This document shows positions 1 through 6,515 of a DNA stretch of 6,515 bases, piece after piece. Below the pieces are notes generated by a model. That model was not told the DNA's origin. It worked only from the letters and a program-made list of their open reading frames with translations, and did no database searches. Both the position numbers and the translations under genes were made by a program. The stretch lies in UHGV virus genome UHGV-1327195, one strand, 5' to 3'. The DNA is from a virus. Positions within the stretch are counted from its first letter, which is position 1; each line of letters begins with the position of its first letter.

Positions 1-67
1 TGTTGATGAAAGCTGGCTACAGGAAGGCCAGACGCGAATTATTTTTGATGGCGTTCCTATTGGTTAA
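1..67 (+). CDS. lacZ: 3' end of a lacZ-alpha reading frame (5' part outside window). Frame from nt 2 reads VDESWLQEGQTRIIFDGVPIG then TAA at 65..67; the last three codons and the stop come from phage DNA after the junction at 55/56.
   Basis: Translation matches the E. coli beta-galactosidase N-terminal region (...NVDESWLQEGQTRIIFDGV) by recall. Lac-derived DNA ends in GTT at 53..55, half of a GTTAAC (HincII/HpaI) site, then phage sequence CCTATTGG resumes. Confidence 0.8.
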   Translation, partial: VDESWLQEGQTRIIFDGVPIG

Positions 68-192
68 AAAATGAGCTGATTTAACAAAAATTTAATGCGA
101 ATTTTAACAAAATATTAACGTTTACAATTTAAATATTTGCTTATACAATCTTCCTGTTTTTGGGGCTTTTCTGATTATCAACCGGGGTACAT
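56..192 (+). promoter_or_regulatory. Distal part of the Ff intergenic region: AT-rich remnant of plus-strand origin domain B (replication enhancer) followed by the gene II promoter and leader.
   Basis: AT-rich non-coding DNA directly upstream of the gene II ATG. Together with 6093..6460 it adds up to the 505-nt intergenic region expected for Ff phage (recalled figure). Confidence 0.75.
121..149 (+). promoter_or_regulatory. Putative sigma70 promoter for gene II: -35 TTTACA (121..126), 17-bp spacer, -10 TACAAT (144..149). The resulting short leader is where gene V protein is known to repress gene II translation.
   Basis: Hexamers and spacing read directly from the sequence; location fits the known gene II promoter region. 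Exact transcription start not determined. Confidence 0.5.
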
Positions 193-1425
193 ATGATTGA
201 CATGCTAGTTTTACGATTACCGTTCATCGATTCTCTTGTTTGCTCCAGACTCTCAGGCAATGACCTGATAGCCTTTGTAGATCTCTCAAAAATAGCTACC
301 CTCTCCGGCATTAATTTATCAGCTAGAACGGTTGAATATCATATTGATGGTGATTTGACTGTCTCCGGCCTTTCTCACCCTTTTGAATCTTTACCTACAC
401 ATTACTCAGGCATTGCATTTAAAATATATGAGGGTTCTAAAAATTTTTATCCTTGCGTTGAAATAAAGGCTTCTCCCGCAAAAGTATTACAGGGTCATAA
501 TGTTTTTGGTACAACCGATTTAGCTTTATGCTCTGAGGCTTTATTGCTTAATTTTGCTAATTCTTTGCCTTGCCTGTATGATTTATTGGATGTTAATGCT
601 ACTACTATTAGTAGAATTGATGCCACCTTTTCAGCTCGCGCCCCAAATGAAAATATAGCTAAACAGGTTATTGACCATTTGCGAAATGTATCTAATGGTC
701 AAACTAAATCTACTCGTTCGCAGAATTGGGAATCAACTGTTATATGGAATGAAACTTCCAGACACCGTACTTTAGTTGCATATTTAAAACATGTTGAGCT
801 ACAGCATTATATTCAGCAATTAAGCTCTAAGCCATCCGCAAAAATGACCTCTTATCAAAAGGAGCAATTAAAGGTACTCTCTAATCCTGACCTGTTGGAG
901 TTTGCTTCCGGTCTGGTTCGCTTTGAAGCTCGAATTAAAACGCGATATTTGAAGTCTTTCGGGCTTCCTCTTAATCTTTTTGATGCAATCCGCTTTGCTT
1001 CTGACTATAATAGTCAGGGTAAAGACCTGATTTTTGATTTATGGTCATTCTCGTTTTCTGAACTGTTTAAAGCATTTGAGGGGGATTCAATGAATATTTA
1101 TGACGATTCCGCAGTATTGGACGCTATCCAGTCTAAACATTTTACTATTACCCCCTCTGGCAAAACTTCTTTTGCAAAAGCCTCTCGCTATTTTGGTTTT
1201 TATCGTCGTCTGGTAAACGAGGGTTATGATAGTGTTGCTCTTACTATGCCTCGTAATTCCTTTTGGCGTTATGTATCTGCATTAGTTGAATGTGGTATTC
1301 CTAAATCTCAACTGATGAATCTTTCTACCTGTAATAATGTTGTTCCGTTAGTTCGTTTTATTAACGTAGATTTTTCTTCCCAACGTCCTGACTGGTATAA
1401 TGAGCCAGTTCTTAAAATCGCATAA
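193..1425 (+). CDS. II: Gene II protein (pII), 410 aa: site-specific nicking endonuclease that initiates rolling-circle plus-strand replication.
   Basis: ORF 193..1425 with ATG start; translation recognised as Ff pII. It sits immediately downstream of the intergenic region as in M13, f1 and fd. Confidence 0.97.
   Translation: MIDMLVLRLPFIDSLVCSRLSGNDLIAFVDLSKIATLSGINLSARTVEYHIDGDLTVSGLSHPFESLPTHYSGIAFKIYEGSKNFYPCVEIKASPAKVLQGHNVFGTTDLALCSEALLLNFANSLPCLYDLLDVNATTISRIDATFSARAPNENIAKQVIDHLRNVSNGQTKSTRSQNWESTVIWNETSRHRTLVAYLKHVELQHYIQQLSSKPSAKMTSYQKEQLKVLSNPDLLEFASGLVRFEARIKTRYLKSFGLPLNLFDAIRFASDYNSQGKDLIFDLWSFSFSELFKAFEGDSMNIYDDSAVLDAIQSKHFTITPSGKTSFAKASRYFGFYRRLVNEGYDSVALTMPRNSFWRYVSALVECGIPKSQLMNLSTCNNVVPLVRFINVDFSSQRPDWYNEPVLKIA
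1090..1425 (+). CDS. X: Gene X protein (pX), 111 aa, translated from an in-frame internal ATG of gene II (pII codon 300); replication regulator identical to the pII C-terminus.
   Basis: In-frame ATG at 1090..1092 (MNIYDDSAVLDAIQ...), sharing the gene II stop. (1090-193)/3 = 299, so it begins at pII residue 300 and gives 111 aa, as known for Ff phage. Confidence 0.9.
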   Translation: MNIYDDSAVLDAIQSKHFTITPSGKTSFAKASRYFGFYRRLVNEGYDSVALTMPRNSFWRYVSALVECGIPKSQLMNLSTCNNVVPLVRFINVDFSSQRPDWYNEPVLKIA

Positions 1426-1436
1426 GGTAATTCACA

Positions 1437-1700
1437 ATGATTAAAGTTGAAATTAAACCATCTCAAGCCCAATTTACTACTCGTTCTGGTGTTTCTCGTC
1501 AGGGCAAGCCTTATTCACTGAATGAGCAGCTTTGTTACGTTGATTTGGGTAATGAATATCCGGTTCTTGTCAAGATTACTCTTGATGAAGGTCAGCCAGC
1601 CTATGCGCCTGGTCTGTACACCGTTCATCTGTCCTCTTTCAAAGTTGGTCAGTTCGGTTCCCTTATGATTGACCGTCTGCGCCTCGTTCCGGCTAAGTAA
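1437..1700 (+). CDS. V: Gene V protein (pV), 87 aa: single-stranded DNA-binding protein that also represses gene II translation.
   Basis: ORF 1437..1700, translation MIKVEIKPSQAQFTTRSGVSRQGKPYSLNEQLCYVDLGNEYPVLVKITLDEGQPAYAPGLYTVHLSSFKVGQFGSLMIDRLRLVPAK recognised as Ff pV. AAGG ribosome-binding site about 10 nt upstream. Confidence 0.97.
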   Translation: MIKVEIKPSQAQFTTRSGVSRQGKPYSLNEQLCYVDLGNEYPVLVKITLDEGQPAYAPGLYTVHLSSFKVGQFGSLMIDRLRLVPAK

Positions 1701-1701
1701 C

Positions 1702-1803
1702 ATGGAGCAGGTCGCGGATTTCGACACAATTTATCAGGCGATGATACAAATCTCCGTTGTACTTTGTTTCGCGCTTGGTATAATCGCTGGGGGTCAAAGA
1801 TGA
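1702..1803 (+). CDS. VII: Gene VII protein (pVII), 33 aa: minor coat protein at the virion tip that emerges first.
   Basis: ATG at 1702, one nt after the gene V stop; translation MEQVADFDTIYQAMIQISVVLCFALGIIAGGQR; TGA at 1801..1803. Below the length cut-off of the ORF track. Confidence 0.9.
   Translation: MEQVADFDTIYQAMIQISVVLCFALGIIAGGQR
1757..1784 (+). promoter_or_regulatory. Putative sigma70 promoter inside gene VII: -35 TTGTAC (1757..1762), 16-bp spacer, -10 TATAAT (1779..1784); would drive gene IX and gene VIII transcripts.
   Basis: Consensus -10 and near-consensus -35 read from the sequence. Ff phage are known to have internal promoters feeding the abundant gene VIII message; the exact assignment is not verified. 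Confidence 0.45.
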
Positions 1804-1898
1804 GTGTTTTAGTGTATTCTTTTGCCTCTTTCGTTTTAGGTTGGTGCCTTCGTAGTGGCATTACGTATTTTACCCGTTTAATGGAAACTTCCTCATGA
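1800..1898 (+). CDS. IX: Gene IX protein (pIX), 32 aa: minor coat protein at the same virion tip as pVII.
   Basis: ATG at 1800..1802 overlaps the gene VII TGA (ATGA); translation MSVLVYSFASFVLGWCLRSGITYFTRLMETSS; stop TGA 1896..1898 overlaps the gene VIII ATG. Confidence 0.9.
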   Translation: MSVLVYSFASFVLGWCLRSGITYFTRLMETSS

Positions 1899-2116
1899 AA
1901 AAGTCTTTAGTCCTCAAAGCCTCTGTAGCCGTTGCTACCCTCGTTCCGATGCTGTCTTTCGCTGCTGAGGGTGACGATCCCGCAAAAGCGGCCTTTAACT
2001 CCCTGCAAGCCTCAGCGACCGAATATATCGGTTATGCGTGGGCGATGGTTGTTGTCATTGTCGGCGCAACTATCGGTATCAAGCTGTTTAAGAAATTCAC
2101 CTCGAAAGCAAGCTGA
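1895..2116 (+). CDS. VIII: Gene VIII major coat protein precursor (pVIII), 73 aa: 23-aa signal peptide (MKKSLVLKASVAVATLVPMLSFA) plus 50-aa mature coat protein AEGDDPAKAAFNSLQ...
   Basis: ORF 1895..2116; translation recognised. The mature protein has Asn at position 12, the residue recalled as distinguishing M13 from fd/f1 (Asp). Confidence 0.97.
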   Translation: MKKSLVLKASVAVATLVPMLSFAAEGDDPAKAAFNSLQASATEYIGYAWAMVVVIVGATIGIKLFKKFTSKAS

Positions 2117-2131
2117 TAAACCGATACAATT

Positions 2132-2157
2132 AAAGGCTCCTTTTGGAGCCTTTTTTT
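2132..2157 (+). terminator. Rho-independent terminator after gene VIII: stem AAAGGCTCC / GGAGCCTTT with a TTTT loop, followed by a T-run.
   Basis: Perfect inverted repeat 2132..2140 / 2145..2153 and a run of 7 T at 2151..2157, read directly; position matches the known central terminator of Ff phage. Confidence 0.85.
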
Positions 2158-2170
2158 GGAGATTTTCAAC

Positions 2171-3445
2171 GTGAAAAAATTATTATTCGCAATTCCTTTA
2201 GTTGTTCCTTTCTATTCTCACTCCGCTGAAACTGTTGAAAGTTGTTTAGCAAAATCCCATACAGAAAATTCATTTACTAACGTCTGGAAAGACGACAAAA
2301 CTTTAGATCGTTACGCTAACTATGAGGGCTGTCTGTGGAATGCTACAGGCGTTGTAGTTTGTACTGGTGACGAAACTCAGTGTTACGGTACATGGGTTCC
2401 TATTGGGCTTGCTATCCCTGAAAATGAGGGTGGTGGCTCTGAGGGTGGCGGTTCTGAGGGTGGCGGTTCTGAGGGTGGCGGTACTAAACCTCCTGAGTAC
2501 GGTGATACACCTATTCCGGGCTATACTTATATCAACCCTCTCGACGGCACTTATCCGCCTGGTACTGAGCAAAACCCCGCTAATCCTAATCCTTCTCTTG
2601 AGGAGTCTCAGCCTCTTAATACTTTCATGTTTCAGAATAATAGGTTCCGAAATAGGCAGGGGGCATTAACTGTTTATACGGGCACTGTTACTCAAGGCAC
2701 TGACCCCGTTAAAACTTATTACCAGTACACTCCTGTATCATCAAAAGCCATGTATGACGCTTACTGGAACGGTAAATTCAGAGACTGCGCTTTCCATTCT
2801 GGCTTTAATGAGGATTTATTTGTTTGTGAATATCAAGGCCAATCGTCTGACCTGCCTCAACCTCCTGTCAATGCTGGCGGCGGCTCTGGTGGTGGTTCTG
2901 GTGGCGGCTCTGAGGGTGGTGGCTCTGAGGGTGGCGGTTCTGAGGGTGGCGGCTCTGAGGGAGGCGGTTCCGGTGGTGGCTCTGGTTCCGGTGATTTTGA
3001 TTATGAAAAGATGGCAAACGCTAATAAGGGGGCTATGACCGAAAATGCCGATGAAAACGCGCTACAGTCTGACGCTAAAGGCAAACTTGATTCTGTCGCT
3101 ACTGATTACGGTGCTGCTATCGATGGTTTCATTGGTGACGTTTCCGGCCTTGCTAATGGTAATGGTGCTACTGGTGATTTTGCTGGCTCTAATTCCCAAA
3201 TGGCTCAAGTCGGTGACGGTGATAATTCACCTTTAATGAATAATTTCCGTCAATATTTACCTTCCCTCCCTCAATCGGTTGAATGTCGCCCTTTTGTCTT
3301 TGGCGCTGGTAAACCATATGAATTTTCTATTGATTGTGACAAAATAAACTTATTCCGTGGTGTCTTTGCGTTTCTTTTATATGTTGCCACCTTTATGTAT
3401 GTATTTTCTACGTTTGCTAACATACTGCGTAATAAGGAGTCTTAA
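2171..3445 (+). CDS. III: Gene III protein (pIII), 424 aa including an 18-aa signal peptide: minor coat and adsorption protein with N1 (TolA-binding) and N2 (F-pilus-binding) domains, two Gly/Ser linkers and a C-terminal anchor domain. Starts at GTG.
   Basis: Translation from GTG 2171 ([28 protein letters not shown]...) recognised as Ff pIII; GGAG ribosome-binding site at 2158..2161. The ORF-track start at 2156 is a TTG 15 nt upstream and is not the real start. Confidence 0.95.
2426..2485 (+). repeat. Four tandem 15-bp units (GAGGGTGGYGGYWCT) encoding the EGGGS x3 + EGGGT linker between pIII domains N1 and N2.
   Basis: Direct tandem repeats read from the sequence; they correspond to the first glycine-rich linker of pIII. 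Confidence 0.9.
2874..2992 (+). repeat. Longer degenerate tandem array encoding the GGGS/EGGGS linker between pIII N2 and the C-terminal domain.
   Basis: Repeated GGTGGYGGYTCT / GAGGGTGGYGGYTCT units read directly; translation [39 protein letters not shown]. Confidence 0.9.
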
Positions 3446-3447
3446 TC

Positions 3448-3786
3448 ATGCCAGTTCTTTTGGGTATTCCGTTATTATTGCGTTTCCTCGGTTTCCTTCT
3501 GGTAACTTTGTTCGGCTATCTGCTTACTTTTCTTAAAAAGGGCTTCGGTAAGATAGCTATTGCTATTTCATTGTTTCTTGCTCTTATTATTGGGCTTAAC
3601 TCAATTCTTGTGGGTTATCTCTCTGATATTAGCGCTCAATTACCCTCTGACTTTGTTCAGGGTGTTCAGTTAATTCTCCCGTCTAATGCGCTTCCCTGTT
3701 TTTATGTTATTCTCTCTGTAAAGGCTGCTATTTTCATTTTTGACGTTAAACAAAAAATCGTTTCTTATTTGGATTGGGATAAATAA
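3448..3786 (+). CDS. VI: Gene VI protein (pVI), 112 aa: hydrophobic minor coat protein at the pIII end of the virion.
   Basis: ORF 3448..3786, AAGGAG ribosome-binding site at 3434..3439; translation recognised as Ff pVI. Confidence 0.95.
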   Translation: MPVLLGIPLLLRFLGFLLVTLFGYLLTFLKKGFGKIAIAISLFLALIIGLNSILVGYLSDISAQLPSDFVQGVQLILPSNALPCFYVILSVKAAIFIFDVKQKIVSYLDWDK

Positions 3787-3787
3787 T

Positions 3788-4834
3788 ATGGCTGTTTATT
3801 TTGTAACTGGCAAATTAGGCTCTGGAAAGACGCTCGTTAGCGTTGGTAAGATTCAGGATAAAATTGTAGCTGGGTGCAAAATAGCAACTAATCTTGATTT
3901 AAGGCTTCAAAACCTCCCGCAAGTCGGGAGGTTCGCTAAAACGCCTCGCGTTCTTAGAATACCGGATAAGCCTTCTATATCTGATTTGCTTGCTATTGGG
4001 CGCGGTAATGATTCCTACGATGAAAATAAAAACGGCTTGCTTGTTCTCGATGAGTGCGGTACTTGGTTTAATACCCGTTCTTGGAATGATAAGGAAAGAC
4101 AGCCGATTATTGATTGGTTTCTACATGCTCGTAAATTAGGATGGGATATTATTTTTCTTGTTCAGGACTTATCTATTGTTGATAAACAGGCGCGTTCTGC
4201 ATTAGCTGAACATGTTGTTTATTGTCGTCGTCTGGACAGAATTACTTTACCTTTTGTCGGTACTTTATATTCTCTTATTACTGGCTCGAAAATGCCTCTG
4301 CCTAAATTACATGTTGGCGTTGTTAAATATGGCGATTCTCAATTAAGCCCTACTGTTGAGCGTTGGCTTTATACTGGTAAGAATTTGTATAACGCATATG
4401 ATACTAAACAGGCTTTTTCTAGTAATTATGATTCCGGTGTTTATTCTTATTTAACGCCTTATTTATCACACGGTCGGTATTTCAAACCATTAAATTTAGG
4501 TCAGAAGATGAAATTAACTAAAATATATTTGAAAAAGTTTTCTCGCGTTCTTTGTCTTGCGATTGGATTTGCATCAGCATTTACATATAGTTATATAACC
4601 CAACCTAAGCCGGAGGTTAAAAAGGTAGTCTCTCAGACCTATGATTTTGATAAATTCACTATTGACTCTTCTCAGCGTCTTAATCTAAGCTATCGCTATG
4701 TTTTCAAGGATTCTAAGGGAAAATTAATTAATAGCGACGATTTACAGAAGCAAGGTTATTCACTCACATATATTGATTTATGTACTGTTTCCATTAAAAA
4801 AGGTAATTCAAATGAAATTGTTAAATGTAATTAA
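3788..4834 (+). CDS. I: Gene I protein (pI), 348 aa: inner-membrane assembly ATPase with Walker A motif GKLGSGKT at residues 8..15 (nt 3809..3832).
   Basis: True start ATG 3788 (MAVYFVTGKLGSGKTLVS...), 2 nt after the gene VI stop. The ORF-track start at 3740 is an upstream in-frame ATG that overlaps gene VI and is not the biological start. Confidence 0.93.
   Translation: MAVYFVTGKLGSGKTLVSVGKIQDKIVAGCKIATNLDLRLQNLPQVGRFAKTPRVLRIPDKPSISDLLAIGRGNDSYDENKNGLLVLDECGTWFNTRSWNDKERQPIIDWFLHARKLGWDIIFLVQDLSIVDKQARSALAEHVVYCRRLDRITLPFVGTLYSLITGSKMPLPKLHVGVVKYGDSQLSPTVERWLYTGKNLYNAYDTKQAFSSNYDSGVYSYLTPYLSHGRYFKPLNLGQKMKLTKIYLKKFSRVLCLAIGFASAFTYSYITQPKPEVKKVVSQTYDFDKFTIDSSQRLNLSYRYVFKDSKGKLINSDDLQKQGYSLTYIDLCTVSIKKGNSNEIVKCN
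4508..4834 (+). CDS. XI: Gene XI protein (pXI, also called pI*), 108 aa: in-frame internal initiation at pI codon 241; membrane assembly protein identical to the pI C-terminus.
   Basis: In-frame ATG at 4508..4510 (MKLTKIYLKKFSRVLCLAIGF...); (4508-3788)/3 = 240, and 108 aa to the shared stop, as known for Ff phage. Confidence 0.85.
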   Translation: MKLTKIYLKKFSRVLCLAIGFASAFTYSYITQPKPEVKKVVSQTYDFDKFTIDSSQRLNLSYRYVFKDSKGKLINSDDLQKQGYSLTYIDLCTVSIKKGNSNEIVKCN

Positions 4835-6092
4835 TTTTGTTTTCTTGATGTTTGTTTCATCATCTTCTTTTGCTCAGGTAATTGAAATGAATAATTCGCC
4901 TCTGCGCGATTTTGTAACTTGGTATTCAAAGCAATCAGGCGAATCCGTTATTGTTTCTCCCGATGTAAAAGGTACTGTTACTGTATATTCATCTGACGTT
5001 AAACCTGAAAATCTACGCAATTTCTTTATTTCTGTTTTACGTGCAAATAATTTTGATATGGTAGGTTCTAACCCTTCCATTATTCAGAAGTATAATCCAA
5101 ACAATCAGGATTATATTGATGAATTGCCATCATCTGATAATCAGGAATATGATGATAATTCCGCTCCTTCTGGTGGTTTCTTTGTTCCGCAAAATGATAA
5201 TGTTACTCAAACTTTTAAAATTAATAACGTTCGGGCAAAGGATTTAATACGAGTTGTCGAATTGTTTGTAAAGTCTAATACTTCTAAATCCTCAAATGTA
5301 TTATCTATTGACGGCTCTAATCTATTAGTTGTTAGTGCTCCTAAAGATATTTTAGATAACCTTCCTCAATTCCTTTCAACTGTTGATTTGCCAACTGACC
5401 AGATATTGATTGAGGGTTTGATATTTGAGGTTCAGCAAGGTGATGCTTTAGATTTTTCATTTGCTGCTGGCTCTCAGCGTGGCACTGTTGCAGGCGGTGT
5501 TAATACTGACCGCCTCACCTCTGTTTTATCTTCTGCTGGTGGTTCGTTCGGTATTTTTAATGGCGATGTTTTAGGGCTATCAGTTCGCGCATTAAAGACT
5601 AATAGCCATTCAAAAATATTGTCTGTGCCACGTATTCTTACGCTTTCAGGTCAGAAGGGTTCTATCTCTGTTGGCCAGAATGTCCCTTTTATTACTGGTC
5701 GTGTGACTGGTGAATCTGCCAATGTAAATAATCCATTTCAGACGATTGAGCGTCAAAATGTAGGTATTTCCATGAGCGTTTTTCCTGTTGCAATGGCTGG
5801 CGGTAATATTGTTCTGGATATTACCAGCAAGGCCGATAGTTTGAGTTCTTCTACTCAGGCAAGTGATGTTATTACTAATCAAAGAAGTATTGCTACAACG
5901 GTTAATTTGCGTGATGGACAGACTCTTTTACTCGGTGGCCTCACTGATTATAAAAACACTTCTCAGGATTCTGGCGTACCGTTCCTGTCTAAAATCCCTT
6001 TAATCGGCCTCCTGTTTAGCTCCCGCTCTGATTCTAACGAGGAAAGCACGTTATACGTGCTCGTCAAAGCAACCATAGTACGCGCCCTGTAG
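4812..6092 (+). CDS. IV: Gene IV protein (pIV), 426 aa with a 21-aa signal peptide: outer-membrane secretin forming the phage export channel.
   Basis: True start ATG 4812 (MKLLNVINFVFLMFVSSSSFAQ...), with AAGG ribosome-binding site upstream; overlaps the gene I 3' end by 23 nt in another frame. The ORF-track start at 4773 is an upstream in-frame ATG. Confidence 0.95.
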   Translation: MKLLNVINFVFLMFVSSSSFAQVIEMNNSPLRDFVTWYSKQSGESVIVSPDVKGTVTVYSSDVKPENLRNFFISVLRANNFDMVGSNPSIIQKYNPNNQDYIDELPSSDNQEYDDNSAPSGGFFVPQNDNVTQTFKINNVRAKDLIRVVELFVKSNTSKSSNVLSIDGSNLLVVSAPKDILDNLPQFLSTVDLPTDQILIEGLIFEVQQGDALDFSFAAGSQRGTVAGGVNTDRLTSVLSSAGGSFGIFNGDVLGLSVRALKTNSHSKILSVPRILTLSGQKGSISVGQNVPFITGRVTGESANVNNPFQTIERQNVGISMSVFPVAMAGGNIVLDITSKADSLSSSTQASDVITNQRSIATTVNLRDGQTLLLGGLTDYKNTSQDSGVPFLSKIPLIGLLFSSRSDSNEESTLYVLVKATIVRAL

Positions 6093-6175
6093 CGGCGCAT
6101 TAAGCGCGGCGGGTGTGGTGGTTACGCGCAGCGTGACCGCTACACTTGCCAGCGCCCTAGCGCCCGCTCCTTTCG
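6093..6175 (+). promoter_or_regulatory. Packaging signal hairpin region (hairpin A) at the start of the intergenic region.
   Basis: GC-rich segment with extensive imperfect dyad symmetry (for example GTAGCGG 6089..6095 pairs with CCGCTAC 6137..6143) directly after the gene IV stop; position matches the Ff packaging signal. Boundaries approximate. Confidence 0.7.
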
Positions 6176-6345
6176 CTTTCTTCCCTTCCTTTCTCGCCAC
6201 GTTCGCCGGCTTTCCCCGTCAAGCTCTAAATCGGGGGCTCCCTTTAGGGTTCCGATTTAGTGCTTTACGGCACCTCGACCCCAAAAAACTTGATTTGGGT
6301 GATGGTTCACGTAGTGGGCCATCGCCCTGATAGACGGTTTTTCGC
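6176..6345 (+). promoter_or_regulatory. Minus-strand origin region (hairpins B and C), where host RNA polymerase makes the primer for complementary-strand synthesis.
   Basis: Location between the packaging signal and the plus-strand origin; contains dyad elements such as GGGTGATGG ... CCATCGCCC around 6297..6327. Boundaries approximate and based on the known Ff intergenic layout. Confidence 0.6.
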
Positions 6346-6460
6346 CCTTTGACGTTGGAGTCCACGTTCTTTAATAGTGGACTCTTGTTCCAAACTGGAA
6401 CAACACTCAACCCTATCTCGGGCTATTCTTTTGATTTATAAGGGATTTTGCCGATTTCGG
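6346..6460 (+). promoter_or_regulatory. Plus-strand (viral-strand) origin core: hairpin GAGTCCAC (6358..6365) / GTGGACTC (6377..6384) with the pII nick site in its loop (TTCTTT^AATAGTGG, between 6372 and 6373), a second palindrome TGTTCC-AAACT-GGAACA (6386..6402), and the start of domain B, cut by the vector junction at 6460/6461.
   Basis: Inverted repeats read directly; the nick position is assigned from the recalled pII recognition sequence of f1/M13. Confidence 0.75.
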
Positions 6461-6461
6461 A

Positions 6462-6515
6462 ACCACCATCAAACAGGATTTTCGCCTGCTGGGGCAAACC
6501 AGCGTGGACCGCTTG
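6462..6515 (+). other. lacI: Internal 3' fragment of lacI (vector-derived); translation TTIKQDFRLLGQTSVDRL in the lacI frame, running off the window end. Not a functional repressor gene.
   Basis: Matches the recalled C-terminal region of E. coli lacI (...PPLTTIKQDFRLLGQTSVDRLLQLSQ...). The fragment starts with AAC at 6461, the other half of a GTTAAC site, right after the phage sequence ...CCGATTTCGG. Confidence 0.8.

Follow-up and report, generated by a model that had tools for sequence, protein, structure and literature searches.

A Met40Ile allele of the gene II replication initiator in an M13mp-type vector backbone with a split plus-strand origin

The window, by which we mean the whole stretch of 6,515 nt analysed here (UHGV-1327195), is the backbone of an M13mp7-or-later cloning vector, and at window position 312 it has the G6125T transversion (M13 numbering) known from M13mp vectors, which replaces Met40 of the replication initiator pII by Ile. 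With a probability of roughly 0.9, this transversion provides an enhancer-independent Ile40 pII that partly restores replication where domain B of the origin is split. For M13mp vectors, both the allele and this interpretation are already known from the literature. The features on which the analysis relies are compiled in Table 1.

Table 1. Positions of the gene II, origin and insert features in the window, with the corresponding M13 coordinates where available.
Feature	Window position	Strand	M13 position	Basis or state
lac insert, 3' end (lacZ alpha)	1..55	+		GTT half of HincII joined to CC half of HaeIII
Distal half of (+)-origin domain B	56..97	+	5869..~5910	domain limits from PMC5405960
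Gene II 5'-UTR (pV operator and Shine-Dalgarno)	161..192	+	about 5974..6005	wild type
Gene II (pII, 410-aa rolling-circle replication initiator)	193..1425	+		ORF translation; Pfam
Gene II codon 40	310..312	+	nt 6125	ATT = Ile; T at 6125, wild type G (Met40Ile)
Gene X (in-frame internal start within gene II)	1090..1425	+	496..831	M13 annotation mapped via alignment
Gene V	1437..1700	+	843..1106	identical to wild type, no alignment differences
Domain A, core (+) origin bound and nicked by pII	6361..6411	+		coordinates from PMC5405960
pII nick (ttcttt/aatagtgg)	between 6372 and 6373	+		sequence; coordinates from PMC5405960
Proximal half of domain B	6412..6460	+	5820..5868	coordinate mapping from whole-genome alignment
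Stronger IHF site, in proximal domain B	6417..6449	+	5825..5857	sites from PMC5405960
lac insert, 5' end (end of lacI)	6461..6515	+		AAC half of HincII after GG half of HaeIII

An earlier note on this DNA had placed Ile at pII residue 40, nt 310..312, in the context ATLSG-I-NLSAR. Coordinates and context are exact in the translated ORF 193..1425: the codon position follows from the gene start (193 + 39*3 = 310), and the surroundings of residue 40 read KIATLSGINLSART (KIATLSG-I-NLSART). The same note had taken ATG to be the wild-type codon, and ATG, not ATT, is indeed what the M13 (NC_003287), f1 (J02448) and fd (J02451) references all carry. The six recent environmental Ff isolates FfAmethyst, FfViolet, FfIris, FfLilac, FfLavender and Copypasta have ATG as well, so that the codon is ATG in nine of the ten complete Ff genomes compared, the exception being JX412914 (see below).

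A census was carried out with two 41-nt probes differing only in the base at nt 6125, which were compared with the 33 Ff records of a phage collection. The G probe matched 23 of these perfectly, and the T probe found a perfect match only in JX412914 and its RefSeq copy NC_074765, i.e. in one distinct sequence. The other eight records are mutagenised f1 lines which differ from the G probe at one base and from the T probe at two and, being closer to the former, carry G too. Two of these lines were read directly; Met40 is present in both, accompanied by a silent change in codon 46 in one and by G39D in the other.

The pII encoded in the window comprises the Pfam domains PF05144 (residues 1–274; E = 4e-76) and PF05155 (residues 319–407; E = 4e-35). 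In comparison with wild-type M13 pII it shows T184I (742..744) and Q206Y (808..810) in addition to M40I. These two substitutions, both listed as M13mp18 changes in PMC5405960 (S1 Table), flank Tyr197, the catalytic tyrosine (PMC5405960), which is invariant in 119 homologues; Ile184 and Tyr206 each occur in none of the 119. No report of an effect of T184I or Q206Y on pII activity was found in the literature. Gene X is unaffected by codon 40. The pII of the helper phage VCSM13 keeps Met40 and carries I51V in the same N-terminal region.

The origin of the window was established by a megablast search of its full length against the phage collection. Ff genomes match positions 56..6460, with identities of 99.8% (M13 JX412914), 99.6% (NC_003287), 99.1% (f1) and 96.9% (fd); positions 1..55 and 6461..6515, at the two ends, are 100% identical to lacI-lacZ sequence of phage DE3. 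The junctions read gg/aac at 6459–6463 and gtt/cc at 53–57. The HaeIII site at M13 5868/5869, in origin domain B, has received a HincII lac fragment by blunt ligation, and the window is an Ff genome opened inside this lac insert. The junction sequence confirmed the lac insertion at 6460/6461 that had been noticed before, and the other junction was located at 55/56.

Changes specific to the window were defined in a whole-genome alignment as differences from both M13 records (NC_003287 and JX412914). Substitutions of this kind are found at M13 3, 149, 213, 214, 216, 1229, 1663, 2224, 2225, 2229, 5909 and 6095, and a T-run near M13 1557–1565 is shortened; G6125T is common to the window and JX412914 only. 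The window substitutions, which represent site-removal changes of mp7 and later vectors together with hitchhikers, all match the list of differences between M13mp18 and wild-type M13 given in PMC5405960 (S1 Table), and this list includes G6125T as 'Gene II: ATG to ATT (Met40Ile)'. None of the M13KE-specific changes (1611, 1614, 1632, 1635, 5092) is present in the window. As Ile40 co-occurs with both lac junctions and with all other published M13mp18 markers, it is a real inherited allele rather than noise. The window does not extend to the polylinker, which sits in the middle of the lac insert, and hence mp18, mp19 and other mp7-or-later members are indistinguishable here.

C6095T, at window 282, is silent (Asp30) and changes the AccI site GTAGAC to GTAGAT, whereby a BglII site (AGATCT) arises. 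Lying 30 nt upstream of codon 40, it distinguishes the late M13mp backbone from the Rutgers stock represented by JX412914. A public contig of mp19 type (L021, a TARA metagenome scaffold with the polylinker in mp19 orientation) is identical to the window over its first 6516 nt except for one T. This sole difference falls into a T-run at window 2152..2158, in the gene VIII terminator/gene III upstream region, which counts seven T in the window, eight in eight public M13mp18/19-type contigs and nine in wild-type Ff. The seven-T state may reflect either a sequencing error in the homopolymer or true variation.

The lac fragment interrupts domain B 49 bp downstream of the core origin. The core origin and the stronger IHF site (6417..6449) lie on one side of it, the distal part of the enhancer (56..~97) on the other. 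Between the insert and gene II (window 56..192) C5909T, at window 96, is the only departure from wild type. This substitution is situated at the distal end of domain B, within the weaker IHF-binding region (M13 5886–5942) and upstream of the reported sites of compensating 5'-UTR mutations (M13 about 5974–5998, corresponding to window 161–185; PMC5405960); it is probably a hitchhiker from mutagenesis. A mutation in the gene II leader had been put forward in the earlier note as an alternative compensator. Comparison of 161..192 showed the leader to be wild type, and this alternative is ruled out for the window. The Arg-to-Cys class of pV compensators is likewise absent, gene V being unchanged in the window. 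Leader and gene V both being wild type, no pII-overproducing (quantitative) compensator is present.

The function of the allele is documented in the literature. As told by Zygiel et al. (2017; PMC5405960), Dotto and Zinder found G6125T, i.e. Met40Ile, in Messing's M13mp1, which as a helper rescued plasmids and origins without domain B, and the allele was handed down from M13mp1 to M13mp18 and M13KE. N-terminal pII mutations including Met40Ile leave the pII level unchanged and restore initiation without IHF or domain B, and some of the N-terminal mutants show more cooperative origin binding or need less supercoiling (PMC5405960). A helper phage bearing a large intergenic insert gave an 8-fold higher yield once Met40Ile had been introduced, a gain ascribed to increased cooperativity with reference to Dotto and Zinder (1984) and Greenstein and Horiuchi (1990) (PMC10359598). 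Compensation by Ile40 is only partial: at 135 min M13mp18 and M13KE, both Ile40, reach titres ~100-fold lower than wild type, and the wild-type rate is regained by further 5'-UTR mutations or by ejection of the insert (PMC5405960). The attribution of Met40Ile to M13mp-derived vectors made in the earlier note agrees with PMC5405960, which names M13mp1, M13mp18 and M13KE; the ability to replicate with a disrupted domain B, also mentioned there, finds support in both papers, to the partial extent just described.

According to these accounts, efficient plus-strand initiation by wild-type pII requires the enhancer (domain B) and IHF, while Ile40 pII is a qualitative, enhancer-independent variant made at normal levels. 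In the summaries given by later papers, Ile40 pII is described as binding the core origin more cooperatively, so that productive initiation complexes form without an intact enhancer; replication would in this way be partly restored despite the lac insert. Residue 40 would, as we infer, work via protein-protein contacts or conformation and not via contact with DNA.

An AF2 model of pII (pLDDT 85.5; residues 31–40 at 94) predicts, at the level of secondary structure, that residue 40 is in a turn between a helix (31–38) and a strand (43–49). In folds of the Rep_trans/TBP-like kind, the sheet is turned toward the DNA, with the helices packed on the opposite side. The N-terminal domain of pII may well adopt such a fold. 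The Rep_trans initiators of the pT181/RepD type (PDB 4cwc and 4cij) show only 12–14% sequence identity to pII, which is in a different Pfam family (PF05144). A sequence search of the PDB with pII gave no match. If the modelled turn placement is combined with the rule that the sheet faces the DNA, a role in conformation or subunit contact would be slightly favoured over one in DNA contact.

Across 119 pII homologues (44–66% identity), the residue aligned to position 40 is Leu in 86, Ile in 16, Cys in 11, Val in 6 and Met in none. The position lies inside a conserved S-G-aliphatic-x-L-S/T-A motif. Leu is found in IKe and in Erwinia phage PEar1; among the six homologues of highest similarity that fall outside the Ff cluster, five have Ile. 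By this alignment, Met40 is peculiar to Ff, and Met40Ile brings pII closer to what is usual in the family. One may go further and, tentatively, regard Met40 as a derived Ff peculiarity and Met40Ile as a return to the family aliphatic, with strong dependence on enhancer and IHF as a tuned-down, Ff-specific state instead of the family default; we hold this extension possible but doubtful.

Ile40 also occurs without any insert. JX412914 (6407 bp), deposited as 'M13 isolate WT variety Rutgers', has an intact GG/CC at 5868, contains no insert and carries T6125, i.e. Ile40. This record and NC_074765 agree with the window in T6125 and in the remaining M13 background, but they lack the lac insert and the other vector substitutions and possess a private G2095T in gene III which is missing from the window. 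According to PMC4888304, JX412914 is identical to a stock obtained from K. B. Low (Yale). Another laboratory's M13 (mSystems 2025; PMC12455974), on the other hand, equals JX412914 apart from positions 2095 and 6125, where it has G, and NEB's own resequenced wild-type M13 also has G at 6125 (PMC5405960 S1 Table). Several papers take JX412914 as their M13 reference; the provenance of the Rutgers stock is not given in the papers citing the accession.

Because insert-free 'wild-type' stocks (the Rutgers record and the Yale stock) carry Ile40, the allele was not necessarily a response to the insert; it may be older than M13mp1, and hence than the insert, in which case selection by the insert would not explain it. 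Ile40 would then have been a laboratory polymorphism already present in the M13 stock behind M13mp1, where the insertion was tolerated by luck, with the same function and a different history. We regard this as possible, though on balance unlikely. It would be in keeping with the Rutgers record, in which T6125 stands beside an intact 5868 site and no other vector mutations, and with the reported identity of the Yale stock; moreover, any third-position change of ATG yields Ile, so that the allele arises easily, and aliphatic residues are the family norm at the position. Yet G is found at 6125 in the NEB stock, in the mSystems 2025 laboratory strain and in V00604, and a literature link between the Rutgers stock and the parent of M13mp1 was not found. 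Nucleotide 6125 is also the sole derived marker shared, the Rutgers-specific G2095T having no counterpart in the window, and this sharing could equally stem from recurrence, or from recombination with an early M13mp phage or helper phage. The Rutgers stock may have acquired its Ile40 by recombination of the latter kind. A late M13mp vector is unlikely as the donor, as C6095T, only 30 nt away, is absent from JX412914. Another reading takes ATT for the true wild-type state of M13 and the ATG of the 1980 reference for a sequencing error or strain oddity, so that the mutation would not be vector-specific. The old reference does have idiosyncrasies, NC_003287/V00604 differing from every other Ff genome at, e.g., M13 1579 and 2710, positions at which f1, the window and JX412914 share one base. 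At 6125, however, it agrees with f1, fd and the six environmental isolates; two independently resequenced wild-type M13 stocks have G, and T is known from only one distinct deposited sequence. Genomes, census and resequenced stocks refute this reading in practice, and we give it hardly any credence.

It has further to be considered whether Met40Ile is a neutral passenger, the vector being viable simply because disruption of domain B is not lethal. Insertions into or deletions of domain B leave about 1% or more of activity (PMC5405960), M13mp18 is still slow despite Ile40, and Met to Ile is a conservative exchange, all of which would suit a passenger. The 8-fold yield obtained with engineered Met40Ile in an insert-bearing helper phage (PMC10359598) and the rescue of plasmids without domain B by M13mp1 helper (Dotto and Zinder, summarised in PMC5405960) speak against neutrality, and we consider it very improbable. 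The preferred reading remains that of Ile40 as an enhancer-independent initiator variant partly compensating for the split domain B.

The exact pII of the window (M40I, T184I, Q206Y) was found on 58 public contigs, some of them named 'synthetic construct'. They include the TARA ocean metagenome scaffold and single-cell genomes labelled SAR11, Psychromonas and Marinosulfonomonas (loci L021–L028). The occurrence of an M13mp pII on marine assemblies looks like laboratory contamination of public data. At its end the scaffold L021 runs into pUC/pBR-like sequence; it is apparently a chimera, assembled through the shared lac region. Gene II gave no match in complete E. coli genomes and none in the plasmid collection, where only f1-origin phagemid fragments and lac were matched. 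Identification of the window as an M13mp-type laboratory vector with a textbook allele is useful mainly for flagging synthetic or contaminant sequence. What is mildly new is the presence of Ile40 in a widely used 'wild-type' reference and the lack of Met at this site across the family. Users who treat JX412914 as 'wild-type M13' should know that it carries an enhancer-independence allele, and the family-wide lack of Met40 may bear on how initiator cooperativity sets enhancer dependence.

With M13mp18 and M13mp19 the window shares the lac HincII fragment at HaeIII 5868/5869, Met40Ile and the published M13mp18 substitution set. Like Met40Ile, the known leader compensators, the gene V Arg-to-Cys compensators and other N-terminal pII substitutions lower the need for domain B and IHF (PMC5405960). 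The leader and gene V compensators do so by raising the amount of pII, whereas Met40Ile alters the protein and not its level (PMC5405960). Since M40I is combined here with a wild-type leader and a wild-type gene V, the window carries only the qualitative type of compensator.
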